64,000 bases of DNA from an uncultured Gammaproteobacteria bacterium. GTDB lineage: Bacteria > Patescibacteriota > Microgenomatia > UBA10105 > UBA927. Location: NCBI GenBank assembly GCA_964629685.1, contig CAZVTT010000004.1:76-64075 (forward strand), read 5' to 3'. The notes under the pieces were generated by a model that was not told where the DNA came from, searched no databases, and saw only the letters and a list, made by a program, of their open reading frames with translations. A program made the translations under genes and the position numbers. Each line of letters starts with the position of its first letter. Within the stretch, counting starts at the first letter, position 1. Shown here one piece after another: positions 22,994-60,196 of this stretch.

Positions 22994-23048
22994 CATGATA
23001 TAATACTTATCCCCCCGGAATTCCGAGGGAATTTTCGTGGAGAAGCAT

Positions 23049-37852: not shown

Positions 37853-37921
37853 ATACGAATATCCCTTACGTTTGTCATCCTAACAGGATAAAGCACTGGG
37901 TGCAATGTACCCAAACTTATC

Positions 37922-37930
37922 TGCTATAAT
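37922..37930 (+). promoter_or_regulatory. Extended -10 promoter TGcTATAAT 7 nt before ATG of first acyltransferase paralog (leaderless)
   Basis: TGCTATAAT at 37922-37930, ATG at 37938. Confidence 0.45.
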
Positions 37931-37937
37931 CCGCACT

Positions 37938-38768
37938 ATGAGCTGGAGAACACCGGAAACGGGAATTAAACCCACCCTAAAAAGTCGCGCCGCTGAATTT
38001 ATTTATCATCACCTAAATGATAAATATGAACTGAAAATTTCTGATCGCAGTGCACACAACATGTCGGAAGCAAACAAGATACTTTCCGATAGTGCTCTCG
38101 TTGTTTATATAAATCATATTTTTTCCCGGGATGCCAAAATCATGATTCCATTAGTTTTAACACTACCGAACGTGCGGAGTGTAATGGGACCGGTAGGAAT
38201 GAAGCACTACGATTTTTCCCGGGATCCGGTAAATGCCGTTTTTTTCCGCTCCTTACGAGTATTCGGTATTCATGCAGCTCCTGTTGTACAAAACAGTGAT
38301 GTATACCAATATGGACAGGAACAGAAACAGGGTATGATTATTAATCTGAAACAGTACACTTCCGATTTGTTGAACAGAGCCGGAACACTCTATGGAATAG
38401 CACCTGAAGGCACCAGAAATCCCAGTGGACAGTTACAACGGGCAAATCGGGGAATTGGTTATCTCGAATCGTATGTGCAACCGGACCAGCATCTTCACTA
38501 TTTACCGGTCGGTCTGGTATATCCTGAACATGATACAAATCCGCGGATAATCGTATCAGAACCGTTTACTTTATCGGATATTTTACCTGCGGAGGTTAAC
38601 TTCGCATCCGATCCGAAAGAGCATGCACAACAGATTTCTGATGTATTAATGACTGTGTTAGCCCGTAGTCTTCCTGAACACATGAGAGGTGTATACGGAA
38701 ATCCCGAAACGATATTAGATCCCTTAGGAATCAGGGAAAACCAACTCCACTATCCGTTACACGAATAA
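37938..38768 (+). CDS. PlsC-like lysophospholipid acyltransferase family protein (paralog 1)
   Basis: HX4D (NHIFSRD) and APEGTRNPSG motifs; start moved from 37905 to 37938. Confidence 0.55.
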   Translation: MSWRTPETGIKPTLKSRAAEFIYHHLNDKYELKISDRSAHNMSEANKILSDSALVVYINHIFSRDAKIMIPLVLTLPNVRSVMGPVGMKHYDFSRDPVNAVFFRSLRVFGIHAAPVVQNSDVYQYGQEQKQGMIINLKQYTSDLLNRAGTLYGIAPEGTRNPSGQLQRANRGIGYLESYVQPDQHLHYLPVGLVYPEHDTNPRIIVSEPFTLSDILPAEVNFASDPKEHAQQISDVLMTVLARSLPEHMRGVYGNPETILDPLGIRENQLHYPLHE

Positions 38769-38807: not shown

Positions 38808-38816
38808 TGCTATAAT
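38808..38816 (+). promoter_or_regulatory. Extended -10 promoter TGcTATAAT 8 nt before ATG of second acyltransferase paralog (leaderless)
   Basis: TGCTATAAT at 38808-38816, ATG at 38825. Confidence 0.45.
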
Positions 38817-38824
38817 GCGACCTT

Positions 38825-39703
38825 ATGACTTGGAATTCACGAGAAAACGAACGCGCCAGACGTACGGTTAAAAGCCGAATAGCGGAGAAAGCCTTCAACG
38901 TCATTAACCGCGCCTATAAATTAGAAATATATCCGGAGCATTCTGCTAACCTTCAGGAAGCTGACCGACGGCTTAGACATAATCCAGTTGTTATTTATAG
39001 CAATCACGTACGAAGCGGAGATTTAAAATTGATGACGCCTATCCTGCTCAGTATGCAAAACGCACAACGGATTGCCGGACCGGCAGGCATGAAACATTGG
39101 GATCTTCACCGCGATGCAATTAACGGTACATTATTGCGTTCACTCAGGTTAGTCGGCATTCGATCAATACCAGTAGTTCAACCGGACGACCCGTATCCCT
39201 ATGAGGATAAGCTTAAAACACACCTTTTACTGAATTTTACCCGCAGAACCGCGTCGTTGTTAAATCAACCGGGTACCCTGTACGGAATAGCGCCTGAAGG
39301 TACCAGAAATCCTGCAGGGATTATTCAACGGGTTTCTCCGGGGATAGGTATGTTCGAATCTTTCATGAAAGCACCCGATATGCAGATAACGTATCAACCT
39401 ATCGGTTTCGTATACCGGGAACAAGATCCCGAAGAACCCAGGATAGTTATCGCACCACCATTTACGCTTTCCGAATTACTCCCCGAATCGAACCTAACGT
39501 TGCTTCACGGATTAAAACGGCAACAGCGGGCACAGATCACCGCAGATCTGCTGATGACAGTACTCGCGGAACAATTACCCGATCATATGCGTGGGGTGTA
39601 TGGGGATCCGGAAGAAATGCTTAAACCTATTGGTATGACTCAGCCTTTGCTTGATGCTGCCATTTTTGAGCTCCCCAGCAGCCAAGAGGTATTCGCTTCG
39701 TAA
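38825..39703 (+). CDS. PlsC-like lysophospholipid acyltransferase family protein (paralog 2)
   Basis: HX4D (NHVRSGD) and APEGTRNPAG; collinear similarity to preceding gene over whole length. Confidence 0.55.
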   Translation: MTWNSRENERARRTVKSRIAEKAFNVINRAYKLEIYPEHSANLQEADRRLRHNPVVIYSNHVRSGDLKLMTPILLSMQNAQRIAGPAGMKHWDLHRDAINGTLLRSLRLVGIRSIPVVQPDDPYPYEDKLKTHLLLNFTRRTASLLNQPGTLYGIAPEGTRNPAGIIQRVSPGIGMFESFMKAPDMQITYQPIGFVYREQDPEEPRIVIAPPFTLSELLPESNLTLLHGLKRQQRAQITADLLMTVLAEQLPDHMRGVYGDPEEMLKPIGMTQPLLDAAIFELPSSQEVFAS

Positions 39704-49811: not shown

Positions 49812-49887
49812 TTGGCTGCCGGGCTAGGATTCGAACCTAGAGTCGCGCTGATCCAAAGTCAGGCGTGTTACCGTTACACCACCCGGC
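49812..49887 (-). tRNA. tRNA-Gln (anticodon TTG), CCA encoded
   Basis: Cloverleaf with U1:A72 and G73 (bacterial Gln identity), U8, T-arm CTAGG-TTCGAAT-CCTAG, anticodon loop CTTTGGA. Confidence 0.65.
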
Positions 49888-49889
49888 AA

Positions 49890-50132
49890 TTATATTCGTC
49901 GTTTTAAATATGCTCGTCCGTAACCAGTTTTAAGCTGCTTCTCTCGTAAGACGGCCTTACTACTGTCTAAACAGGCTTCATAATAAATTAATTTAAACGG
50001 TAATCGATTCTGAGTCGAAATTACCTTTCCTAAATTATGCTCTGAAAGTCGCTTTTCGAGATCAGATGTAAACCCAATATAAAGTTCATTATCAATCGTA
50101 CTACGTAAAACGTAAGTATAGTAGAACTTCAT
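49890..50132 (-). CDS. Small GIY-YIG nuclease-domain protein
   Basis: YTYVL...YIGFTSDLEKRLSEHN GIY-YIG core; stop 2 nt from tRNA-Gln 5' end. Confidence 0.65.
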   Translation of the reverse strand: MKFYYTYVLRSTIDNELYIGFTSDLEKRLSEHNLGKVISTQNRLPFKLIYYEACLDSSKAVLREKQLKTGYGRAYLKRRI

Positions 50133-50240
50133 ACTTAATACACCACCTGCCCGCAATGCTACGCATAGCGTTGCAGGCGGGCCCGGCAATAACGAACTCA
50201 CCTATTTTACACTATAATCCCTATCTGGTAAAAGGAAACC

Positions 50241-52196
50241 ATGGAATACCTGGATGCATTTACGCTTATTCAGATCGAATTCTGGACCTATTTGGCCTAC
50301 TTTTTTATAGCAGTACTCATCGCCTGGACTATTCCCGGGATTCTCATTCTACAAAAATTAAACACCTCTATCTGGAAAAAACTTATCGTAGCTACCTGTG
50401 TTGGCATAGTAATGTGGGGCTGGCAGGCATGGATACTTGGTCTGCTACACATACGCTGGGCGAGTTTTATATATCTGGGAGTAATGCTCATTGGTTTTTC
50501 CCGTTACTCCAGGAAAATACCGCGGTTCCACAAACCATCCCCTATAATTTTTAACCTGGCGGCCATCATTATCATGCTAGTGGGTGTCGCGGCACAACAA
50601 CTCCCTCTGTGGCACCAGGGTATCCGCTCGGATTCAGGAATCGGCTTTTGTTGTGAAGAACCAATAGACGGTCTCTGGAATATAGCGGTTACCGATCAGC
50701 TGGTACGAGCTATACCACCGGAAACTCCGGGTTATTCAGGAACACCGTTTATCAATTATCACTTCTGGTCCTATCTGATTACTGCAGACCTGATCCGTGT
50801 TTTCCATCTGCCGCTATTACCCACACAACTGCAATTCATGCCGCTTTTTATATCAGTTATGTATGGCCTGGTACTTCTGTCTGTGGGATCACTTTGGTTA
50901 AAAACAAAAACGGCATTTCAGTGGTTACTCTTCTGGACGTACTTTGCTGCGGATTTTTTCCCGATCGCCCGGATGCACGTTACAGGCTCCGTTGATTTTA
51001 ACCTGACGCCACTTTTGAGCAGTTGGATGTTTTCCATGAATTTTCCTATGAGCATATCCATTGTGCTTTTGCTCGCAGCAATTTTCATTATTGCCGCGTG
51101 GGAGAAACAACGAAGCCGATCACTATTGCTGCTGGCTGCGTTCATGTGCGGGACTGTGATCGGGTACAAAGTGCATACCGGAATATTCGTACTACTTGGC
51201 CTGTTGGCACTTGCCGTTCTTCAACAGAAAAAACAATTCACGGGTTTATTCTTCGCCAGCGTCGTCATTGCCGCCGTATTATATCTACCTCAGAATCACG
51301 GCTCCGGAGGGTTATACATAAGCTGGTTTTCGCGTATTGCGGAATTTGCGTCACTTCCCGAACTTGGATATTCCGATTCCGTTATGAAAACCATAAACTT
51401 CCCCGCAAAACAATTACTCCAAATGCCGTTCAGGCATACGGTTTACTACGTGTTTAGCGGTATGTTCTTAACGGGTTTGTATCTCATGACATACTTTGGT
51501 TTTTATTCCGGCGTGCTGTTATTGCGCAAAAAAGATTTTTTGGAGATTCCTAAAATCGTAAAAACCATGATTATTCCGGCAATACTAGTATCACTGATAT
51601 TGGGTGTATTTACGCAACAAGCATCCGGCGGGGGACACACGTACAATTTTATTGCCATCGTGTATTGGATCATGCCGCTTATGATTATTCAATTATTTCT
51701 TCCGGAAGGACTTTACCACCGTTCCGCATATTGGCGGGTAATCATGCTTATCTTCGTTACGGTTAACTGTGTACGACTGGTACCTCAGATGGGTGCGTAT
51801 TTACGGGACTATGACACCCGGCGATGGTTTATCATTTCGCATGATGAATTAACTGCATTAACATGGGCAAGGGAACATCTGTCTACCAATACCCTACTTT
51901 TCGTGGATACTGAAAACAGACAGGATGCTATAGCACCCTACGTCAGTATTTTTAGTCAAAAACCTGCGTACTATTCCGGCAGGATTTCTAACTTAGCACA
52001 CAACGTACATGATGCAGAAAAGTGGGAGTTAATCCAACGAGTGTATTCAGATGTTCCATGTGAGCAAAAAAAACAATCGTTAGGAAAATATCCGAATGCG
52101 GTGTTGTATATTCGGAAACAAAACGGATCGGATCTCAGCCGTTTTAGTTGCATGACACCCAGATTCGCAAACAGTGCAGTAATGCTGTTGCAGTAA
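50241..52196 (+). CDS. Large polytopic membrane protein (GT-C-like glycosyltransferase candidate)
   Basis: 651 aa, >12 TM helices, periplasmic C-terminal region; no motif I can name confidently. Confidence 0.45.
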   Translation: MEYLDAFTLIQIEFWTYLAYFFIAVLIAWTIPGILILQKLNTSIWKKLIVATCVGIVMWGWQAWILGLLHIRWASFIYLGVMLIGFSRYSRKIPRFHKPSPIIFNLAAIIIMLVGVAAQQLPLWHQGIRSDSGIGFCCEEPIDGLWNIAVTDQLVRAIPPETPGYSGTPFINYHFWSYLITADLIRVFHLPLLPTQLQFMPLFISVMYGLVLLSVGSLWLKTKTAFQWLLFWTYFAADFFPIARMHVTGSVDFNLTPLLSSWMFSMNFPMSISIVLLLAAIFIIAAWEKQRSRSLLLLAAFMCGTVIGYKVHTGIFVLLGLLALAVLQQKKQFTGLFFASVVIAAVLYLPQNHGSGGLYISWFSRIAEFASLPELGYSDSVMKTINFPAKQLLQMPFRHTVYYVFSGMFLTGLYLMTYFGFYSGVLLLRKKDFLEIPKIVKTMIIPAILVSLILGVFTQQASGGGHTYNFIAIVYWIMPLMIIQLFLPEGLYHRSAYWRVIMLIFVTVNCVRLVPQMGAYLRDYDTRRWFIISHDELTALTWAREHLSTNTLLFVDTENRQDAIAPYVSIFSQKPAYYSGRISNLAHNVHDAEKWELIQRVYSDVPCEQKKQSLGKYPNAVLYIRKQNGSDLSRFSCMTPRFANSAVMLLQ

Positions 52197-52309
52197 TGGT
52201 ATAGCCTAGTCAATTCTGGAACTTTCGTATTTTTCAGCGGTCCCGCCATGGCTTCGCAATTGTATGCTCCCTCAATGTTCACCCAATCCTAAAAGACTAT
52301 ACTAATGGT

Positions 52310-52711
52310 ATGAAAATACTGTTTTGGCTGCCACGGATTATCAGTATTTGTTTCGTGTTATTTCTATCCTTATTTTCACTTGATGTATTTACGGAATATA
52401 CCGGAATACAAGCGATACTAGCGTTTATCATGCACCTTCGTTATCCTTTTCTTCTACTTCTGCTGTCCCTAATTGCCTGGAAGTATGACCTATTCGGAGC
52501 AGTTATATTTTTAGGATTTGCCGTGTTTTATATTCTTACGGTGGGTCTGAACCGGCCATGGAGTTGGTATGTCAGCATTTCCGGACCCTCGGTATTTGTC
52601 GCGATGTTGTACGCAGTAAGTTGGCGAAATAAAAAGAAGTTAAATCAAACAAGAAGAGGCACGGGTAGGAAAAAAGTAAGTAATGCCGATATCAATTCAT
52701 GCAACCCGTGA
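52310..52711 (+). CDS. Small membrane protein
   Basis: 133 aa, 3-4 TM; TGA stop overlaps tRNA-Gly end. Confidence 0.4.
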   Translation: MKILFWLPRIISICFVLFLSLFSLDVFTEYTGIQAILAFIMHLRYPFLLLLLSLIAWKYDLFGAVIFLGFAVFYILTVGLNRPWSWYVSISGPSVFVAMLYAVSWRNKKKLNQTRRGTGRKKVSNADINSCNP

Positions 52712-52782
52712 GCGGGCGATGGGACTTGAACCCACGACCTTCTCCTTGGCAAGGAGACATTCTACCGCTGAACTACGCCCGC
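52711..52782 (-). tRNA. tRNA-Gly (anticodon GCC)
   Basis: GCGGGCG acceptor, anticodon arm TCTCC-TTGCCAA-GGAGA, T-arm GTGGG-TTCAAGT-CCCAT, discriminator U. Confidence 0.85.
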
Positions 52783-52936
52783 TTAATTGTTAAATAACCG
52801 CCTGTCCATTACAACCCAAAACGGTTAACTCAGCGTTTATTTTAGCACACAATCGGTTTCTGTACAGCCAGAGCTTATGTATAGCCCGTCCATACGGGTT
52901 GAATATTTCTATAGGATATGTTAAACTACCAACCTT

Positions 52937-54418
52937 ATGACGCTAAAACAGAATAATCTAAACTCGTTCCTCCAGACCATCAAAAAAATAGTAGATACCG
53001 TAAAACGATTTTTCAAAACTGTCGCTAAAAAACTCATTCAGCTCATTGACCGGGCACCTTTAGTAACCTTTTTCGGATTCCTGGTAATTCTACTGGTACT
53101 TATCCTGGTTGGTAATTTTTTGCGTAAACCGAAAAACACCGAAACAGCCTCAGAAACGGCACCTAAGCATGTAGAAATTTCCAGTATCGGCGAAAATCCC
53201 CGGGTACAGGTCAGCGCAAAAGTAGAAAAAACCGGTGTAATTAAACTCGTGGCCCAGTCTAATGGCATTGTGCAGGCCATTCATAGAACTGAAGGATCCC
53301 GTGTAGGAAGAGGTCAATGGATTATTTCTTTATCAAATACGTATCAGGGCGGAACAATTGCCTCCGTAAGCAGACAGGTGGCACAAAAAAATAACGAATT
53401 TACCGAATTAAATTACCCTGTGCAATTGGAAATGATAAAAAAACGTCGGGAGATTGCTAACCTCAGTGACGGCCAGGCAGATAAGCTGCGTGACATAGCC
53501 AACCAATCCATCGACGAAACCAAAAGTCTTATTAGCCTGAATGAAGAGATACTTACTTCGCTGAATGCCCAGATAGAATTCCTGGAGACATCCGGAGCAG
53601 ACGAGTCGGATATTATGACTGCAAAACAAGGAAAAGCAGGATTACTTACCGGTTTAAACGCACTGAAAACCGCTTTACGGAATACCGAATACCAGGCAGA
53701 CGAAGATCATGAACCGGGACAACTCGCCAATAAAAGTCGCGAGCTAACGCAACAACAACTCGATATCGAGGAACGTTCACTGAATCTGAATGTAGAAATA
53801 AGTAAACTGAATTTACGATTAGCTCAAATTAACGAATCGTTTATGTACCCGGCCAGTCCGGTAAACGGGGTAGTTGAACGGATTTACGTTAAAATTGGAG
53901 ATTCGGTAAATCCGGGAACCGTTCTGGCTACCATCAGCTCAGACAAAACATCGGTAACGGCAGTAGCGGCAATTTCTGCGGAACTTGCGGAAAACATTTC
54001 TACCGTAGAAAAAAGTAAAATTACTATTGGTACCATTCATTTTGAGCTGGCGCCGCGCTATGTATCTTCGGAACCAACCGAAGGGAATATGCACGCGGTA
54101 TTGTTTACCATTCCCGATGAATACGTAGATCAACTGAGTAATAGTTCTTATATTACGGTTGAAATTCCGGTCAGCAAACCCAAAAGTGCCGCAGCCGTAC
54201 CATTCGTACCGTTGGATGCTATCTTTCAGACACAAACAGACGCGTATGTATTTGTTGCGTCTCCTTCAGCCAGCGGCGCATTAATCGCTCAAAGCCGAAC
54301 AGTCGATTTGGGTGACGTAATCGGATCATACGTCAGAATTGAAAACGGTTTACAGGCAGGGGATCAGGTCATTATCAACCGCAATATCATTGCTGGTGAT
54401 CCGGTCACCATTCAATAA
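52937..54418 (+). CDS. Efflux periplasmic adaptor (HlyD/membrane-fusion family)
   Basis: N-terminal TM, long coiled-coil, beta-barrel/lipoyl-like ends; precedes RND pump. Confidence 0.6.
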   Translation: MTLKQNNLNSFLQTIKKIVDTVKRFFKTVAKKLIQLIDRAPLVTFFGFLVILLVLILVGNFLRKPKNTETASETAPKHVEISSIGENPRVQVSAKVEKTGVIKLVAQSNGIVQAIHRTEGSRVGRGQWIISLSNTYQGGTIASVSRQVAQKNNEFTELNYPVQLEMIKKRREIANLSDGQADKLRDIANQSIDETKSLISLNEEILTSLNAQIEFLETSGADESDIMTAKQGKAGLLTGLNALKTALRNTEYQADEDHEPGQLANKSRELTQQQLDIEERSLNLNVEISKLNLRLAQINESFMYPASPVNGVVERIYVKIGDSVNPGTVLATISSDKTSVTAVAAISAELAENISTVEKSKITIGTIHFELAPRYVSSEPTEGNMHAVLFTIPDEYVDQLSNSSYITVEIPVSKPKSAAAVPFVPLDAIFQTQTDAYVFVASPSASGALIAQSRTVDLGDVIGSYVRIENGLQAGDQVIINRNIIAGDPVTIQ

Positions 54419-54435
54419 TCAGCCACGGTATTTCC

Positions 54436-57400
54436 ATGGACAAAACCCACGAACACAAATCATATCTCGATCGGATTACATTTGATCCTAAACTTGGTGC
54501 CGGCGTTATAGCCAAATTCGTCACCAATATCCGGATCGTGTTACTTTTGGTTATTTCTATTGCCTTTTTGGGAATATTCAGCTATCTGAACTTACCGCAA
54601 CGGTTAAATCCGGAAATAAAAATTCCCATTGTTATCGTATCCACCGTACTTCCGGGCGCAGGACCAGACGATGTAGAAAAACTGGTAACCATTCCTATAG
54701 AGGAAAAACTCCGTGGTTTGTCGGGGTTGGATACCATTTCATCCGTATCACAGGAAAACTTTTCGGTTATTACCATGCAGTTCTTTAACTCGGTAGGGCA
54801 AGACCCTGCGAAAGCCTTGGTAAAGGATGCTGTAGACAGTGTGTCTGGTCTACCTGAAGACGCAAACGACCCGCAAGTTGCTGCCTTGGATTTTGAAAAC
54901 CAACCCATCTGGCAGTTTGCCATTACATCACCTTCGGACCCGGTTTCGCTGTTTACGTTCAGCAAAAAATTACAGGATGACATAAAAAATATTCCCAATG
55001 TTGACCGGGTAACCATCCGCGGTCTGGAAGAACAGGAAGTTGCCATAGATATTTCTCCTGAAAAAGTTGCAGAATCCGGCTTAAATCCGATTCAGCTTTC
55101 CGGTGTGCTAAAAACTGCACTGGGAGCATACCCGTCCGGATCGATAGATACGTCGAGAAATACGTTCGCTCTCACAATAGACCCTTCTATTAACTCAATA
55201 GAAGGCATACGCAAGACCAAAATCAGTATTGGTGCAGTAGATGTGCAACTGGGAGATATAGCCACAGTCTATGAGCGGTCAAAGGGAAACCAAACCGTAT
55301 CGTATTTGGCTTCTCCTCAAGACCCGCCGAGAGTAGCGGTAACGTTTGCCGTATATAAACGTTCAAATGCGGACATTATTAAAACCGCTGAACAGGTACG
55401 TAAAATTGTAGATGCGGAAATAGAAAAAACAGATAACCGGTTTGTTCTTACGGATATAAGTAACACCGGTGAACTGATTAAAACGCAGTTTTCGGACTTA
55501 TTGGGGGAATTCCGTTCAACAATACTATTAGTATTTGCCACGCTCTTTTTATTCCTGGGCCTGCGCCAAGCCATTATTTCGTCCATTACGGTTCCGCTTA
55601 CCTTCTTATCCGCCTTCGTATTCATGTCGGTTTTCGGCATGTCCATTAACTTCCTGTCGCTGTTTGCCTTTTTGCTCGCGTTGGGTTTACTCGTAGACGA
55701 CACCATTGTAGTCGTATCGGCTATGACAACGTATTACAAAACAGGCAAGTTTACTCCGGCGGAAACGGGCTTGCTGGTATGGCGGGATACCATTGTGCCG
55801 ATCTGGTCTACAACCATTACTACTATCTGGTCGTTTGTCCCGTTACTCCTTTCCAGCGGAATTATCGGCGAATTCATTAAACCCATTCCGGTAGTGGTAA
55901 CCGTAACCATGATCTCTTCGACTGCTATTGCCGTTTTAATAACACTGCCGGTTATGATTGTATTATTAAAGCCAAAAATTCCCGGACGGGTTATATTCCT
56001 CGGTAAACTTATCGGTGTATTGGCACTCATTGGAGTAATTATTGCCATTGCCGGCAGCAATATATTGTTCCTCCCTATTACGATTGCATATCTCGTTTTT
56101 GTAGCAATTGCCTGGCGTGTCCGTCGGATTATTGCCGCACAAATCAAACAAACCACGGCCAGAATTCCCGGCGTACACAAAACCTGGAATCTGCTTGGGA
56201 AATATGCCAGTCATGGCGTCATTTCCGTCGATGGTTTTGCACAGGCATATGAACGGTTCATTACCAGAATTCTGAAAAGTAAATCAGCACGCAGAAACGT
56301 CGTAATCGCTATCGTGGCATATGCTGTATTTGCCTTTGCCTTATTGCCCATGGGGCTTATTCAGAATGAATTTTTCCCGAAGTCGGAAGCCGATCAGGTA
56401 TACATCAATTTGGAATTACCGTCCGGGACATTACTGGAACACACCAAGCAGGAAACAGAGACATTACTTGAACGGTTCCGCCAAAACAGCCATATCGATT
56501 ATGTGGTGGGTGAAGTAGGCAATTCAAATTCCGGTAATGGCTTTGGCGGAGGAAGTGAACAGACAAATATAGCGCTGTTTACGTTTCATTTACCGGAGAA
56601 AGAAAAACGCACGGCCGACTCCATAAAGATTGCAGAGGAACTCCGCAAACAGGTAGCCGATTACCCGAACGGAAAACTTTCCGTGCTGGAAGAGTCAGGC
56701 GGTCCACCCGCCGGTGCAGAATTGCAGTTAAAATTATCGGGAGACGATTTAGGTGAATTAAATCTATATGCCGACAAGGTTGCGGAATTTTTACGAACTC
56801 AACCAGGAGTGGTCAATATAGAAAAGTCAATTAAACCGGGGACGAGTGCGCTGGTATTTGTTCCGGACCAGGACCGCCTGCTGGAACATGGATTAGCTGC
56901 AAACTCCATAGGCCTTTGGCTCCGAACGGCAGTAAGCGGTTTTACACTCGGTGAAGTTAACTTCGAGGAACAAACCACAGACAAAAAGAATGTCGTGTTT
57001 TCGTTTGGTTTAACCAGACAAACACCGGAATCGCTGGGTCGTTTACAAATACCGACACAACAGGGGCCCGTTTCGCTGTCTTCTTTGGGAACATTTAAAA
57101 CTCAAGCCAGTCCAACACTTATAACCAGAGAACAGGGGAAACGGACAATTTCAGTAAGTGCCGGTGTATCACGGGGATATTCCGCCACCGAGTTAAATAC
57201 GAAATTACTGGATTTTTCAAAAACCGTAGAACTTCCGACGGGATACGAATGGAAAACAGGCGGAGTTAACGAAGAAAACGCCAAATCCGTTCAATCCATT
57301 CTTCAGGCTATGGTGGTGGCGTTTATTCTGATTCTGGTAACTATGGTAATCCAATTCCAATCATTCCGTCAGGCAGTAATTGTACTTTTGGTTATTCCCT

Positions 57401-57783
57401 TGGCTGTTTCCAGTGTGTTCCTGATATTTGCCCTTACGGGAACACCGTTATCATTTCCGGCATTAATCGGTGTGCTTTCACTATTCGGCATCGTGGTAAC
57501 CAATTCCATGTTTATCGTGGACAAAATAAACTTAAACCGAAAAGAGGGTATGCCGTTTATAAAAGCCATAGCAGACGCAGGCTCCAGCCGTATGGAACCG
57601 ATTATCCTGACTAAACTTTGTACCGTATTCGGGTTATTGCCGATTACCCTGGCCGATCCGCTGTGGCGGGGATTGGGCGGTGCCATAATTTCCGGATTAC
57701 TGATCGCCAGTACCATAATGTTGCTCTTTATTCCGGTAGTGTATTACGCATGGATGAAACCCGCTGAGAACTCCGACCTTTAA
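54436..57783 (+). CDS. RND-superfamily efflux transporter permease
   Basis: 12-TM two-repeat architecture, GLLVDDTIVVV motif, 1115 aa. Confidence 0.85.
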   Translation: MDKTHEHKSYLDRITFDPKLGAGVIAKFVTNIRIVLLLVISIAFLGIFSYLNLPQRLNPEIKIPIVIVSTVLPGAGPDDVEKLVTIPIEEKLRGLSGLDTISSVSQENFSVITMQFFNSVGQDPAKALVKDAVDSVSGLPEDANDPQVAALDFENQPIWQFAITSPSDPVSLFTFSKKLQDDIKNIPNVDRVTIRGLEEQEVAIDISPEKVAESGLNPIQLSGVLKTALGAYPSGSIDTSRNTFALTIDPSINSIEGIRKTKISIGAVDVQLGDIATVYERSKGNQTVSYLASPQDPPRVAVTFAVYKRSNADIIKTAEQVRKIVDAEIEKTDNRFVLTDISNTGELIKTQFSDLLGEFRSTILLVFATLFLFLGLRQAIISSITVPLTFLSAFVFMSVFGMSINFLSLFAFLLALGLLVDDTIVVVSAMTTYYKTGKFTPAETGLLVWRDTIVPIWSTTITTIWSFVPLLLSSGIIGEFIKPIPVVVTVTMISSTAIAVLITLPVMIVLLKPKIPGRVIFLGKLIGVLALIGVIIAIAGSNILFLPITIAYLVFVAIAWRVRRIIAAQIKQTTARIPGVHKTWNLLGKYASHGVISVDGFAQAYERFITRILKSKSARRNVVIAIVAYAVFAFALLPMGLIQNEFFPKSEADQVYINLELPSGTLLEHTKQETETLLERFRQNSHIDYVVGEVGNSNSGNGFGGGSEQTNIALFTFHLPEKEKRTADSIKIAEELRKQVADYPNGKLSVLEESGGPPAGAELQLKLSGDDLGELNLYADKVAEFLRTQPGVVNIEKSIKPGTSALVFVPDQDRLLEHGLAANSIGLWLRTAVSGFTLGEVNFEEQTTDKKNVVFSFGLTRQTPESLGRLQIPTQQGPVSLSSLGTFKTQASPTLITREQGKRTISVSAGVSRGYSATELNTKLLDFSKTVELPTGYEWKTGGVNEENAKSVQSILQAMVVAFILILVTMVIQFQSFRQAVIVLLVIPLAVSSVFLIFALTGTPLSFPALIGVLSLFGIVVTNSMFIVDKINLNRKEGMPFIKAIADAGSSRMEPIILTKLCTVFGLLPITLADPLWRGLGGAIISGLLIASTIMLLFIPVVYYAWMKPAENSDL

Positions 57784-57869
57784 ACTGTTAGCTGAATCAC
57801 AAATAGTTTGTACTATATAGGACTGTGACCGTAATCAGTTTCCGATTAACTACGTGCAAAGGAGAAATT

Positions 57870-58361
57870 ATGGAAACTAAACAACCGTTACTGGTTATTG
57901 TCGTAGTAGCACTTACCGCCGGACTCGCCGGGGGGATAATATCGAATTCTTTTATGGGGGCGAAAACGCCACCGCCAGAAAAAATGGTAGCAGAATCCGC
58001 TAAAATGCCCAGTGTCATATTTCACATCGCGACCGATCCGAAAACCAATCCGCATAGCGGATTTATGGCACTGACAGCAGCGGGTAAGTTTGCTGATGCC
58101 GGATCAAAAGTGTTTGTTTTCTTTGACGTAAAAGGTGTAGCGTATGGTACAAAAGACAGTGATTTTACGTTTGCCGATTTCGGTTCGTCAAAGAAACTTA
58201 TCGCGGATCTTCTGGCAAAAGGAGTTCGGGTTGAAGTATGTCAGCATTGCTTTCATGTAAATGAATTTAAGGATGCAGACTTAATGGAAGGATTACATTG
58301 GAAAGATTTGAGTAAAACCACCGAAGGATTAAACGATCCCATCCTAACATTTGATTACTAA
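57870..58361 (+). CDS. Membrane-anchored DsrE/DsrF-like (YchN-fold) protein
   Basis: N-terminal TM then ~110-aa domain with CQHC; start at METKQ (RBS AAAGGAG). Confidence 0.35.
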   Translation: METKQPLLVIVVVALTAGLAGGIISNSFMGAKTPPPEKMVAESAKMPSVIFHIATDPKTNPHSGFMALTAAGKFADAGSKVFVFFDVKGVAYGTKDSDFTFADFGSSKKLIADLLAKGVRVEVCQHCFHVNEFKDADLMEGLHWKDLSKTTEGLNDPILTFDY

Positions 58362-58382
58362 TTTTGTGTAAGTATAAAAAAA

Positions 58383-58404
58383 CCCGCGAAAGCGGGTTTT
58401 TTTT
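58383..58404. terminator. Bidirectional rho-independent terminator A8-CCCGC-GAAA-GCGGG-T8
   Basis: Perfect 5-bp GC stem, tetraloop, flanked by A8 and T8. Confidence 0.85.
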
Positions 58405-58405
58405 A

Positions 58406-58481
58406 TGGTGCCGAGCCTAGGAGTTGCACCCAGATAACATGTTTTTCAGACATGCGCCTTGACTACCTCGGCCAGCTCGGC
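58406..58481 (-). tRNA. Atypical tRNA-like gene, 76 nt, anticodon GAA (Phe-decoding if functional), CCA encoded; Ser-like D-arm, T-loop TGCAACT (G55)
   Basis: Perfect 7-bp acceptor GCCGAGC/GCTCGGC, U8, D-arm GCCGAGGTAGTCAAGGC, anticodon arm CATGT-CTGAAAA-ACATG, 4-nt variable, T-arm CTGGG-TGCAACT-CCTAG, A73-CCA. Confidence 0.5.
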
Positions 58482-58498
58482 TTCAAATGTACCTGAAG

Positions 58499-58527
58499 AT
58501 TATATCACGAGTTTAGCTCCAGTTTAA
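58499..58527 (-). promoter_or_regulatory. Promoter for tRNA-like gene: TTAAAC-17-TGaTATAAT, about 17 nt upstream of the tRNA-like 5' end
   Basis: Read on minus strand; extended -10. Confidence 0.45.
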
Positions 58528-58592
58528 GATGCAGTCTTGGGTTACCTGTTACTAACCTTCTCTTGTATCCGTTTCAATGATACGATAATTAC

Positions 58593-60092
58593 ATGCCCAA
58601 ATCTGCGGCGAAATCATTCCGTTCATTGGTAACTTTTCGTTCAATTATACTTTCACTGTATGTGTTGGTAGTTATCGCGCTTGCATATTCCGTATTTCGC
58701 TCCGGTTACTTTTATACATTTGATAACGACGAATACCTGCACGCACATGTTGTGTATTTACTTGATCACGGGAAATATATGTTCCGGGATATATTTAGCG
58801 TATATACTCCCATTTATCATTGGTTTCTTTTACCGTTTTACAAATTCTACGGATACTCGTTAGAAACCATCCAATTCAGCAGATATGTGATGATCCTCTT
58901 GTTTGTACTTCGTCTGGCTGCCGGATTCCTGATAACACGAAAATTATTCGGTAAACGCACGGCGATGCTCTTTTTACCACTACATCTCCTTGATCCTTTT
59001 GCTGTGTTTACCAATATGCAACTCCGACCGGATAATCTGATGTTAACGGCATATTGCCTGGGACTTGCCAGTTTGGTTAAGGCGGTAGAAAAGAAAAATA
59101 AAAAGTGGTGGGTTCTCGCAGCCGTAGGATTGAGTTTGTCGGTATTAACGAATATAAAAATAGTTCCCGTTGCCGGAATTACCGCATTTATGTCGCTCGT
59201 TTACTTGTGGAGTCAAAAACAGAAACACATTTTGATATGGTTCATCGTTGGGGGTCTCGTACCGATTGCATTGTTCTGCTGCTATTTTCTTTCAATCGGT
59301 ACCTTCGGGGCAATGCTCCAACAGATAGTAGTAGACGCCAGACTTACAAACGATACACGCATGTTTCCGGTACCGCCGGGTTTCTTTTACCATCCCAACA
59401 ATATATTGGTATTTGGAGCCCCTGAAAGACCTTTAAACTGGATTTACGCGTGGGTTCTTCCCTTAGCCGCCTTTTCCGGAGCATACCAGCTGATTATGTC
59501 CTGGTTAAAAGACAAAAAATATACTGCCCAGTCGTTTCCGCAGCTAGTCTTAGTGGGCGGTCTGGTTGCTGCCTGGTCTTCGCTTTTAGCCGTTAAATCA
59601 CTGTTTATTCAATATTACATTCCCACTACCTGGTTTTTTGCTATCCTGGCAGCCGTTTCCATAAACGGTATGGTAAAACTTATGCCCAACTCCAAAACAA
59701 CAACCACCATACTTACACTGGGTCTCATGCTTTTCGCGCAACAATCATATACGGCAAATCAGGTACGTGCCACATCCAGGGGAGATGATTTTAAAAACAT
59801 GATCATACGAAGATGGCAACAGATTCCCGTTAATCAGGCAGTATTTCCGGATTTTCTGTTCCGGCCATCCGTATATCCAATCAGCTTCGGATACGGAATA
59901 GGGGAAATACCGACACCTATTCTGAACCGTTTTACGGCGATATCCAAAACAATAGACGAGAATAAACTACCTTTCGTACTGATAGACAGTTATCAGCTGA
60001 ATTTGCTGCCGCCGGAATATAGGGGGTATATAGAAAAGAACTTCCGCAGCATTTCTCCGGCAGATCCGGATTATAGAATCCGGAATAAATAA
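58593..60092 (+). CDS. Polytopic membrane protein, GT-C (ArnT/PMT-like) glycosyltransferase candidate
   Basis: 499 aa, ~11 TM, short periplasmic loops with acidic motif near first loop; weak. Confidence 0.4.
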   Translation: MPKSAAKSFRSLVTFRSIILSLYVLVVIALAYSVFRSGYFYTFDNDEYLHAHVVYLLDHGKYMFRDIFSVYTPIYHWFLLPFYKFYGYSLETIQFSRYVMILLFVLRLAAGFLITRKLFGKRTAMLFLPLHLLDPFAVFTNMQLRPDNLMLTAYCLGLASLVKAVEKKNKKWWVLAAVGLSLSVLTNIKIVPVAGITAFMSLVYLWSQKQKHILIWFIVGGLVPIALFCCYFLSIGTFGAMLQQIVVDARLTNDTRMFPVPPGFFYHPNNILVFGAPERPLNWIYAWVLPLAAFSGAYQLIMSWLKDKKYTAQSFPQLVLVGGLVAAWSSLLAVKSLFIQYYIPTTWFFAILAAVSINGMVKLMPNSKTTTTILTLGLMLFAQQSYTANQVRATSRGDDFKNMIIRRWQQIPVNQAVFPDFLFRPSVYPISFGYGIGEIPTPILNRFTAISKTIDENKLPFVLIDSYQLNLLPPEYRGYIEKNFRSISPADPDYRIRNK

Positions 60093-60119
60093 CAAGAAGT
60101 ATAGATAAAATCAAAATAC

Positions 60120-60196
60120 TGGTGGACGCTAAGAGATTCGAACTCCTGACCCCTACTGTGTAAAAGTAGTGCTCTAACCAACTGAGCTAAGCGTCC
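60120..60196 (-). tRNA. tRNA-Val (anticodon TAC), CCA encoded
   Basis: GGACGCT acceptor, D-arm GCTCAGTTGGTTAGAGC, anticodon arm CTACT-TTTACAC-AGTAG, T-arm AGGAG-TTCGAAT-CTCTT. Confidence 0.9.

Follow-up and report, generated by a model that had tools for sequence, protein, structure and literature searches.

Introduction

Few contacts in cytoplasmic tRNAs are held to be universal, and that between G18 in the D-loop and pseudouridine 55 (Psi55) in the T-loop is among them; nearly all bacteria have a gene for TruB. The G19-C56 pair forms the flat face that is used by the ribosome, RNase P and T-boxes. Here we describe a tRNA-Phe(GAA) gene, located on the minus strand at 58406..58481 of a 64,000-nucleotide (nt) stretch of DNA from an uncultured bacterium (contig CAZVTT010000004.1; hereafter, the window), in which G19-C56 is kept and A18 and G55 take the place of the G18-Psi55 partners, and we compare it with 88 relatives in which positions 18 and 55 vary in concert.

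Residue 18 of tRNA is hydrogen-bonded to Psi55 and inserts between residues 57 and 58, which are positions 4 and 5 of the T-loop (PMC4810234). Most T-loops combine a UA-handle with a UNR or a GNR turn; outside tRNA the turn is mostly GNR (the 'G-clamp'), the 'U-clamp' of tRNA being rarer (PMC2615604). The T-loops of riboswitches for flavin mononucleotide (FMN) and for cobalamin conform to UGNRA in 88.7% of cases, and the base that intercalates from the receptor is almost exclusively adenosine, with tRNA standing as the exception that carries U at T-loop position 2 (preprint 10.1101/2022.12.26.521914).

Among described tRNAs, Escherichia coli tRNA-Phe (pheU/pheV) shares with the window tRNA the class I cloverleaf, GAA, A73, U8, A14, U20, U33 and A37, as well as G19-C56, U54-A58, U60, G53-C61 and the same predicted affinity for EF-Tu; four of the five T-stem pairs (C49-G65, U50-A64, G52-C62 and G53-C61) are identical, the E. 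coli sequence having been verified. By contrast, the window tRNA has A18·G55 rather than G18·Psi55, a D-stem of 3 base pairs (bp) plus G13·A22 with a 9-nt loop rather than the 4-bp GCUC/GAGC stem, a variable loop of 4 rather than 5 nt, G26·U44 in place of A26·G44, and a G15 that faces U48. The D-arm of the window tRNA has a counterpart in tRNA-Phe of Cytophagales (Bacteroidota; e.g., loci L044, L085 and L097), in which GCCGAG-NNGGUC-AAGGC is likewise found within a class I tRNA with a short variable loop; the Cytophagales tRNA, however, keeps G18-G19 and the canonical UUCGA T-loop, and its acceptor and anticodon stems are unrelated in sequence.

G55 itself is known from the non-proteogenic tRNA-Gly(UCC) of Staphylococcus, the donors for the pentaglycine bridge, in which TGC or TGT replaces TTC and Psi55 is missing (PMC7826273). 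These are extra copies present beside proteogenic isoacceptors and their T-stems weaken EF-Tu binding, whereas the window tRNA-Phe has a T-stem typical of its class, retains G19-C56, couples G55 to A18 and occupies an ordinary tRNA-Phe slot. With the FMN and cobalamin riboswitches, the window T-loop shares a U-G-N-R-A pentaloop closed by G53-C61, two extra loop bases and an available adenosine (A18); the differences are that here the motif lies in a tRNA elbow, that its partner is the D-loop rather than a riboswitch T-loop receptor, and that its geometry is a prediction. UGNRA T-loops with an adenosine also occur in rRNA, RNase P and T-box stem I.

Thus, precedents exist singly: the Ser-like D-arm in Cytophagales, G55 in staphylococcal tRNA-Gly, and UGNRA with adenosine in riboswitches. 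The literature searched yielded no case of their combination in an apparently ordinary elongator tRNA that has become fixed in a clade and has evolved once more. Likewise, no description of an A18/G55 elbow, of T-loops in tRNAs of the candidate phyla radiation (CPR) or of Gottesmanbacteria tRNAs was found in that literature, the coverage of which is incomplete, such that tRNA databases may hold prior notice.

A class I tRNA-Phe with an A18/G55 elbow

The gene encodes a 76-nt RNA, including CCA, that was recovered by ARAGORN, by Rfam RF00005 and by RNAalifold on its relatives, and reads GCCGAGC UG GCCG AGGUAGUCA AGGC G CAUGU CUGAAAA ACAUG UUAU CUGGG UGCAACU CCUAG GCUCGGC A CCA. Scoring with the tRNA model, which the first-pass annotation of the window, made from the letters alone, had named as a possible refutation, gave a match at 58409-58481 (minus strand) with 54.6 bits, well over the gathering score of 29, compared with 59.2-70.6 bits for the other three tRNAs of the window. 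The acceptor stem is Watson-Crick paired at all seven positions and the anticodon stem at all five, and U8 and A73 are present by direct reading; the discriminator A73 is at 58409 and the encoded CCA at 58406-58408 (minus strand). The anticodon GAA (positions 34-36; 58445..58447, minus strand), placed by ARAGORN at gene position 35 and confirmed by direct reading, lies between U33 and A37.

In the Rfam alignment, the D-arm (58456..58472, minus strand) consists of GCCG-AGGUAGUCA-AGGC, with a 3-bp stem extended by G13·A22, A18 at 58464 and G19 at 58463. The variable loop is 4 nt long (UUAU), and the T-loop (58422..58428, minus strand; direct reading and Rfam alignment) is U54 G55 C56 A57 A58 C59 U60, with G55 at 58427. 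The tertiary pairs U8-A14, G19-C56 and U54-A58 are all present and are invariant in the relatives described below. The canonical G18-U55 (Psi55) contact is missing, A18 and G55 being found instead. The first-pass annotation had described a complete cloverleaf with perfect acceptor and anticodon stems, U8, GAA, A73 and encoded CCA, a 3-bp D-arm of the Ser type, a short variable arm and a T-loop TGCAACT with G55; every element that it listed for the tRNA unit was found by direct reading where it had been placed, and ARAGORN and Rfam agree on the cloverleaf, although the coupling of G55 to A18 had not been seen. The A18/G55 combination departs from the canonical tRNA consensus, and the RNA is a variant of bacterial tRNA-Phe rather than a standard member. 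The window RNA is thus ordinary as a gene and unusual as a structure.

Covariation among relatives

Relatives were collected by scanning one genome per species for the pattern GCCGAG-N6-AAGGC-N6-CTGAAAA and metagenome contigs for a narrower pattern. The first-pass annotation had named a lack of conservation in relatives among the signs of a decaying pseudogene; the scans recovered near-identical, full-length tRNA-Phe genes in 88 genome or metagenome contigs, amounting to 37 distinct sequences when the window is counted. They come from metagenome-assembled genomes (MAGs) of Candidatus Gottesmanbacteria, the 'Microgenomates group' and the 'Patescibacteria group', and from MAGs labelled 'uncultured Gammaproteobacteria'.

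Across the 37 distinct sequences, compensatory changes were found in 9 of the 20 stem pairs (3-70, 4-69, 5-68, 6-67, 7-66, 28-42, 49-65, 50-64 and 51-63). Pair 28-42 is G-C in 20 sequences, A-U in 12 and U-A in 5; pair 7-66 is A-U, C-G or U-A; the three T-stem pairs 49-65, 50-64 and 51-63 each occur as three or four pair types, and the four further acceptor pairs each show one double change. None of 500 shuffles reached the observed pair values, and 95.6% of the alignment cells are paired, compared with 25-42% when the 3' partners are slid by 1-3 columns. RNAalifold, applied to the same 37 sequences, returned the cloverleaf unprompted. The search patterns placed no constraint on the acceptor stem, the T-arm, the variable loop or the 3' partner of 28-42, and it is there that the covariation lies, which rules out a pseudogene. 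All four stems are under purifying selection.

The first-pass annotation had also pointed to an internal duplication, GCCGAG being found both in the 5' strand of the acceptor stem and in the D-arm. The repeat is real, but it is not maintained: relatives in which the acceptor strand reads GCCGAA, GCTGAG, GCCAAG or GCCGGG all keep GCCGAG in the D-arm. Because the two copies do not covary, a recombination scar was rejected as their origin, and the repeat is best seen as a coincidence of two constrained elements.

Positions 18 and 55 change together

In the window and the 88 relatives, A18 is found with G55 in 86 contigs and the window, G18 with U55 in two (L102 and L134), and mixed states in none. 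The two exceptions share the D-arm, the anticodon arm and the variable loop with the A18/G55 members, and have G18 in the D-loop and a UUCGA T-loop. In all 86 G55 relatives, the D-loop reads A14 G15 N16 Y17 A18 G19 U20 C20a A21, so that positions 16 and 17 vary and A18, G19, U20, C20a and A21 are invariant among the A18/G55 members. A shifted register, in which G15-G16 would act as G18-G19, was considered and rejected, given that position 16 is G, A or U across the relatives.

The window T-loop conforms to the UGNRA sequence criterion, with U54 G55 C56 A57 A58 closed by G53-C61, and these bases are constant in the 35 distinct A18/G55 sequences except for position 57, which is A or G; U60 is constant as well, and position 59 is free. 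These patterns suggest that, in the elbow, the pairing of T-loop and receptor has changed from that of tRNA to that of riboswitches. A18 would then play the part of the adenosine that intercalates between T-loop positions 4 and 5, as in the UGNRA T-loops of riboswitches, with the elbow rewired to A18·G55 in place of the near-universal G18·Psi55, and with G19-C56 and U54-A58 retained. The three-dimensional geometry of A18·G55 proposed here is a prediction from these conserved bases.

The remaining tRNAs of the same loci provide the contrast. In the window, the three remaining tRNAs carry the usual GG and UUC, and the non-Phe tRNAs of the family loci (268 scored distinct tRNAs) have GG in the D-loop together with U55 or C55, with one exception. 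This is a tRNA-Gly(GCC) in L129 (contig Ga0315283_10240270, 1551-1622, plus strand; 63.7 bits), which has A18-G19 and the T-loop UGCGAAU, with G55, and adjoins an A18/G55 tRNA-Phe; elsewhere in the lineage, tRNA-Gly(GCC) combines GG with U55 or C55. The L129 gene represents a second, independent origin of A18/G55. In addition, C55 with G18 kept (T-loop UCCRA) was found in 33 of the 268 tRNAs, of Gln, Gly, Val and Leu types (e.g., L002 162-234, minus strand, Gln; L021 6532-6604, minus strand, Gly; L020 2278-2354, Val; L100 2463-2547, Leu(CAG)), and, outside the lineage, in two odd tRNAs among ~70 from unrelated loci. From these counts, position 55 appears to be relaxed throughout the lineage, a sign that Psi55, and perhaps TruB as well, may be unnecessary in it. 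The TruB motif G[HTKR]xG[TS]LD had no match in the 1.16 Mb scanned and TruB was not found in the 8.7 kb past the left edge of the window; both results are uninformative, for the gene could lie anywhere in the genome.

Gene order and identity elements

In ~25 of the 30 relatives' loci annotated with ARAGORN, tRNA-Phe belongs to a cluster with the order Val(TAC)-Phe(GAA)-Gly(GCC)-Gln(TTG), often with Leu genes ahead, and each locus scanned for tRNAs held one tRNA-Phe. The minus strand of the window preserves this order, with tRNA-Val(TAC) (60120..60196) upstream of tRNA-Phe, followed by tRNA-Gly(GCC) (52710..52782; canonical T-loop UUCAAGU) and, as the last member, tRNA-Gln(UUG) (49813..49888; canonical T-loop UUCGAAU). 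L102, in which tRNA-Phe has G18 and U55, is arranged as Leu-Leu-Val-Phe-Gly-Gln, and this shared order identifies its gene as a positional orthologue with a canonical elbow.

The cluster is compact in the relatives and spread over 10 kb in the window (49813-60196), where the inserts between the minus-strand tRNAs are all plus-strand genes: a PMT_2 glycosyltransferase, a DsrE-like open reading frame (ORF), an AcrB-type resistance-nodulation-division (RND) pump with an HlyD-type adaptor, a DUF7670 protein, and an ORF of 651 amino acids without a Pfam match. When nine window ORFs were compared by tblastn with 102 genome loci, the sole match was a homologue of the 651-residue ORF in L010, so the flanking proteins are uninformative and orthology is argued here from the order of the tRNA genes. 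L010, in which that homologue is 26% identical, also shows a milder splitting of its tRNA cluster.

The Phe identity set comprises G34, A35, A36 and A73, which are universal, together with U20 and U59 of E. coli, U45, and A26:G44 (PMC9976931). In the tRNA-Phe family, G34, A35, A36, A73 and U20 are present and invariant, and U45 is present (33 of the 37 distinct sequences); of the minor E. coli elements, position 59 is variable, being C in the window, and G26:U44 replaces A26:G44. The additive model of Schrader and Uhlenbeck (PMC3239215), applied to T-stem pairs 49-65, 50-64 and 51-63, predicts an EF-Tu affinity of -9.3 kcal/mol for the window tRNA and -9.0 to -9.5 kcal/mol for all scorable A18/G55 variants, compared with a predicted mean of -9.4 kcal/mol (sigma 0.82) for 118 bacterial tRNA-Phe(GAA).

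A probable housekeeping tRNA-Phe and its alternatives

We consider it likely that the locus is the housekeeping elongator tRNA-Phe(GAA) of a Gottesmanbacteria-type bacterium (Microgenomates, Patescibacteria/CPR). The first-pass annotation had named a divergent tRNA-Phe among its candidates, and this reading is now supported by the compensatory changes across the 88 contigs, the conserved gene order, the Phe identity nucleotides and a T-stem that resembles those of tRNA-Phe in its predicted EF-Tu binding. According to the scenario that we propose, an ancestral Val-Phe-Gly-Gln cluster would have been split by plus-strand protein genes, such that each tRNA would need its own signals; in the case of tRNA-Phe, these would be a bidirectional intrinsic terminator directly behind CCA and an extended -10 promoter from which the transcript would start ~10 nt ahead of the mature 5' end. 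The RNA would adopt an ordinary class I cloverleaf, its D-arm resembling that of class II (3 bp and G13·A22); it would be charged by PheRS through G34, A35, A36, A73 and U20, delivered by EF-Tu and used on the ribosome and, having G55, could not carry Psi55. It would presumably be the sole tRNA-Phe of the genome.

Several points weigh against this assignment. A yeast suppressor tRNA loses its function upon a single mutation of G18 or U55 (PMC4117946), although such inactivation of single mutants fits the absence of mixed 18/55 states in the family. The only well-studied bacterial G55 tRNAs, the non-proteogenic tRNA-Gly of S. aureus and S. epidermidis, are not used in translation (PMC7826273). 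The EF-Tu affinities are predictions of a model calibrated on the E. coli and Thermus factors rather than on that of a CPR bacterium. The search patterns fixed parts of the D-arm and the anticodon arm, so that invariance in these parts holds partly by construction. The genomes were read over 64 kb here and at most 14.5 kb per relative, a coverage that leaves room for a second, canonical tRNA-Phe elsewhere. Finally, the minimum-free-energy fold of the single sequence is a rod-like alternative 2 kcal/mol below the cloverleaf. Rod-like folds of this kind are common among tRNAs, and since the single-sequence fold gave no cloverleaf, we judged the structure on the alignment fold and the pair counts.

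Because the known bacterial G55 tRNAs are non-proteogenic, we had to weigh the alternative of a specialised, non-ribosomal paralogue, charged with Phe and kept off the ribosome as a donor for envelope or peptide modification or as a regulatory ligand, with a canonical tRNA-Phe encoded elsewhere. The parallel with the staphylococcal tRNA-Gly, which also has G55, speaks for such a role, and our scans were blind to tRNA-Phe with a canonical D-arm elsewhere in these genomes. Nevertheless, the gene corresponds in position to its orthologue in L102, a tRNA-Phe with the canonical elbow, within a Val-Phe-Gly-Gln order of ordinary elongator tRNAs, and its predicted EF-Tu affinity lies at the mean of the tRNA-Phe class and is held there through compensating changes in the T-stem. 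By the same model, the staphylococcal tRNAs stand out from their class (-9.5 compared with a mean of -10.8), and T-stem pairs that weaken EF-Tu binding, as theirs do, were not found in the scorable variants. No genome or contig gave two matches to a pattern fitting both elbow types. Furthermore, the relaxation of position 55 across the lineage, seen as C55 in tRNAs for Gln, Gly, Val and Leu and as A18/G55 in a single tRNA-Gly, points to altered constraints on the elbow rather than to a special role for Phe. CPR genomes of ~1 Mb seldom retain duplicate tRNAs. Taken together, these considerations render a dedicated paralogue improbable.

Considerably less probable is a tRNA-derived regulatory small RNA, also raised by the first-pass annotation, or a tRNA introduced by a mobile element or phage, transcribed from a promoter of its own and serving a role outside decoding. 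Its appeal stems from the promoter-like element and terminator that flank the gene between genes of the opposite strand; however, all four tRNAs of the window are equally isolated by the splitting of the cluster, and in the relatives the gene is co-linear with other tRNAs. The isolated unit is therefore a local consequence of the split cluster. Conservation extends to all tRNA features, the anticodon loop and the discriminator among them, and the score above threshold and the purifying selection on all four stems lend no support to a regulatory RNA. A megablast search of 57800-59200 against 50,697 phage records returned no match, and neither did a scan of a viral contig collection with the tRNA pattern.

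The least credible candidate is a decaying or chimeric pseudo-tRNA, e.g., the 5' part of a tRNA-Ser joined to tRNA-Phe, with a damaged T-loop: although class II tRNAs typically have the GCCGAG...AAGGC D-arm, G55 violates a rule that is nearly universal and the Rfam score is below those of the window's other three tRNAs, that score is far over the threshold, the stems are unbroken in 88 relatives with nine compensated pairs, T-loop positions 54, 55, 56, 58 and 60 are unchanged among the A18/G55 members, Cytophagales tRNA-Phe combines the same D-arm with a normal T-loop, the GCCGAG repeat does not covary, and differing flanks (66-92% identity) exclude the relatives being recent copies of one mobile sequence.

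Predicted transcription signals and flanking elements

The promoter proposed by the first-pass annotation, TTAAAC-17-TGaTATAAT, is present in the sequence. The extended -10 element TGaTATAAT (58499..58507, minus strand) is an exact match; the -35-like hexamer TTAAAC (58522..58527, minus strand), by direct reading, matches TTGACA at 3 of 6 positions and was left unlisted by a consensus scan because fewer than 4 of the 6 bases match. The spacer between TTAAAC and the -10 box is 17 nt, as is the distance from the end of the box to the mature 5' end of the tRNA. That stretch (58482..58498, minus strand) would yield a 5' leader of ~10 nt, to be removed by RNase P, given that transcription usually begins ~7 nt past a -10 box. 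TGNTATAAT is not enriched in the window (5 matches compared with 4.07 expected), and its weight comes only from its position ahead of a tRNA with both neighbours on the opposite strand.

Of the four other matches to TGNTATAAT, three are near ORF starts on the plus strand (22996-23004, 37922-37930 and 38808-38816). One is 33 nt ahead of the start of uvrA (23037), another is just within the called start of the ORF at 37905-38768, and a third is 9 nt ahead of the ORF start at 38825, which suggests a leaderless mRNA or one with a very short leader.

Immediately downstream, one base past CCA, begins a putative bidirectional intrinsic terminator, A8-CCCGC-UUUC-GCGGG-U7 (58376..58404, both strands), which in the minimum-free-energy fold forms the symmetric 12-bp hairpin that the first-pass annotation had called perfect. 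The tRNA and terminator together (111 nt) fold at -44.7 kcal/mol, with z = -4.86 relative to shuffles. The consensus scan missed the terminator because the A and T tracts are absorbed into the stem. Given its symmetry, it could also serve the convergent plus-strand ORF at 57825-58361, which is DsrE-like; the other neighbour, the PMT_2 glycosyltransferase at 58593-60092, is also on the plus strand, and thus tRNA-Phe cannot be co-transcribed with either. Promoter and terminator are predicted from sequence features: a sigma-70-type extended -10 in the first case, and a GC-rich hairpin with a U-tract in the second.

The description of the locus as a self-contained transcription unit is fair for the window, in which both neighbours are on the opposite strand, but does not extend to the family, many members of which directly follow tRNA-Val. 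A -10-like box is found 9-30 nt upstream of tRNA-Phe in about one-third of the relatives, including at 15-19 nt upstream of the orthologous tRNA in L010, L021, L028, L043, L062, L121, L141 and L165. Neither is the encoded CCA a family trait, being found in 12 of 69 distinct contexts.

Two further elements flank tRNA-Phe in subsets of the relatives. On the 3' side, the end of the tRNA (G71 C72 A73) and the trailer pair with a downstream complement, as in GCACCGCG...CGCGGTGC, GGCACCA...TGGTGCC and GCACUGAA.UUCAGUGC, the sequence of which covaries; examples include L002, L035, L046, L049, L062, L110, L111, L117 and L165. A perfect trailer stem of at least 6 bp was found in 26 of the 71 distinct tRNA-Phe contexts, compared with 0-12% for the Val, Gly(GCC), Gln and Leu isoacceptors, the other well-sampled tRNAs of the same loci. 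This hairpin may act in termination or in 3' processing; in the window, a classical terminator follows CCA instead. On the 5' side, a hairpin GCUUGC-CCUGA-GCAARC or GCUUGC-AGUGA-GCGAGC, followed by ..GAGUCGAAUCU or ..GUCGAAGG, is located directly ahead of tRNA-Phe in L049, L075, L095, L105, L107, L109, L110, L140 and L146, sometimes with TATAAT before it. The element, which has no counterpart in the window, may be a leader structure or the remnant of a degraded tRNA.

Host assignment and incidental tRNAs

The window is bacterial chromosome with ~44% G+C and includes metK, pgi, ppdK, uvrABC and the RND pump among its genes. Exact protein matches place the DNA in Logan assemblies of SRR14271333 and sister runs; the PMT_2 protein encoded next to tRNA-Phe had no exact record. 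Proteins named Candidatus Gottesmanbacteria or Patescibacteria match the UvrB of the window at 69-74% identity; among them are those of chromosomes of 1.09 Mb and 0.995 Mb and of a 55.5-kb contig, all of which carry the same type of tRNA-Phe. Judging from the UvrB matches, the host is assigned to the Microgenomates (CPR), as an uncultured member of Gottesmanbacteria type.

The Microgenomates tRNA cluster is also present in MAGs that were submitted under the name 'uncultured Gammaproteobacteria bacterium' (binchicken co-assemblies): L006, L010, L019, L020, L035, L046, L047 and L052, and, further, L062, L063, L075, L084, L092, L095, L100 and L102. Because L062 aligns with a 'Microgenomates group' locus at 76% nucleotide identity over 5.8 kb, the Gammaproteobacteria label on these MAGs is probably wrong.

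As a by-product unrelated to the window, the genome pattern scan recovered class II, Ser-like tRNAs of 85-92 nt with a long variable arm and the anticodon GAA: L009 5132-5218, L029 6673-6757, L041 7433-7520, L053 5515-5605, L058 4397-4485, L060 2887-2973, L078 4798-4886, L099 2516-2607 and L101 6857-6943. Their hosts are MAGs of Alphaproteobacteria, Acidobacteriota and Planctomycetota and one of Bathyarchaeota, and the tRNAs could be natural Phe-to-Ser missense tRNAs or assembly variants. A Ser-like tRNA in the assembly of Methyloceanibacter marginalis strain R-67177 (L007 1730-1818) has a 6-nt anticodon loop, CUGAAA.

Implications

We tentatively suggest, at somewhat less than even confidence, that in the Gottesmanbacteria lineage position 55 has been freed from the G18·Psi55 rule that nearly all other life obeys, with C55 arising repeatedly and the elbow rebuilt as A18·G55 at least twice, in the tRNA-Phe of the clade and in one tRNA-Gly, in the riboswitch-like form of UGNRA with adenosine. 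Psi55, and perhaps TruB, would then be dispensable or lost, and A18·G55 would be a natural functional equivalent of G18·Psi55 in a translating tRNA. The A18·G55 tRNA-Phe of the clade, its repetition in tRNA-Gly and the frequent C55 would together amount to a natural experiment on what the elbow requires, bearing on whether the tRNA-type and riboswitch-type pairings of T-loop and receptor are interchangeable and on whether reduced genomes can do without Psi55 and without TruB as a chaperone. For tRNA engineers, the family may offer a ready-made orthogonal variant of the elbow and, for genome annotation, G55 alone is no ground for calling a tRNA a pseudogene.

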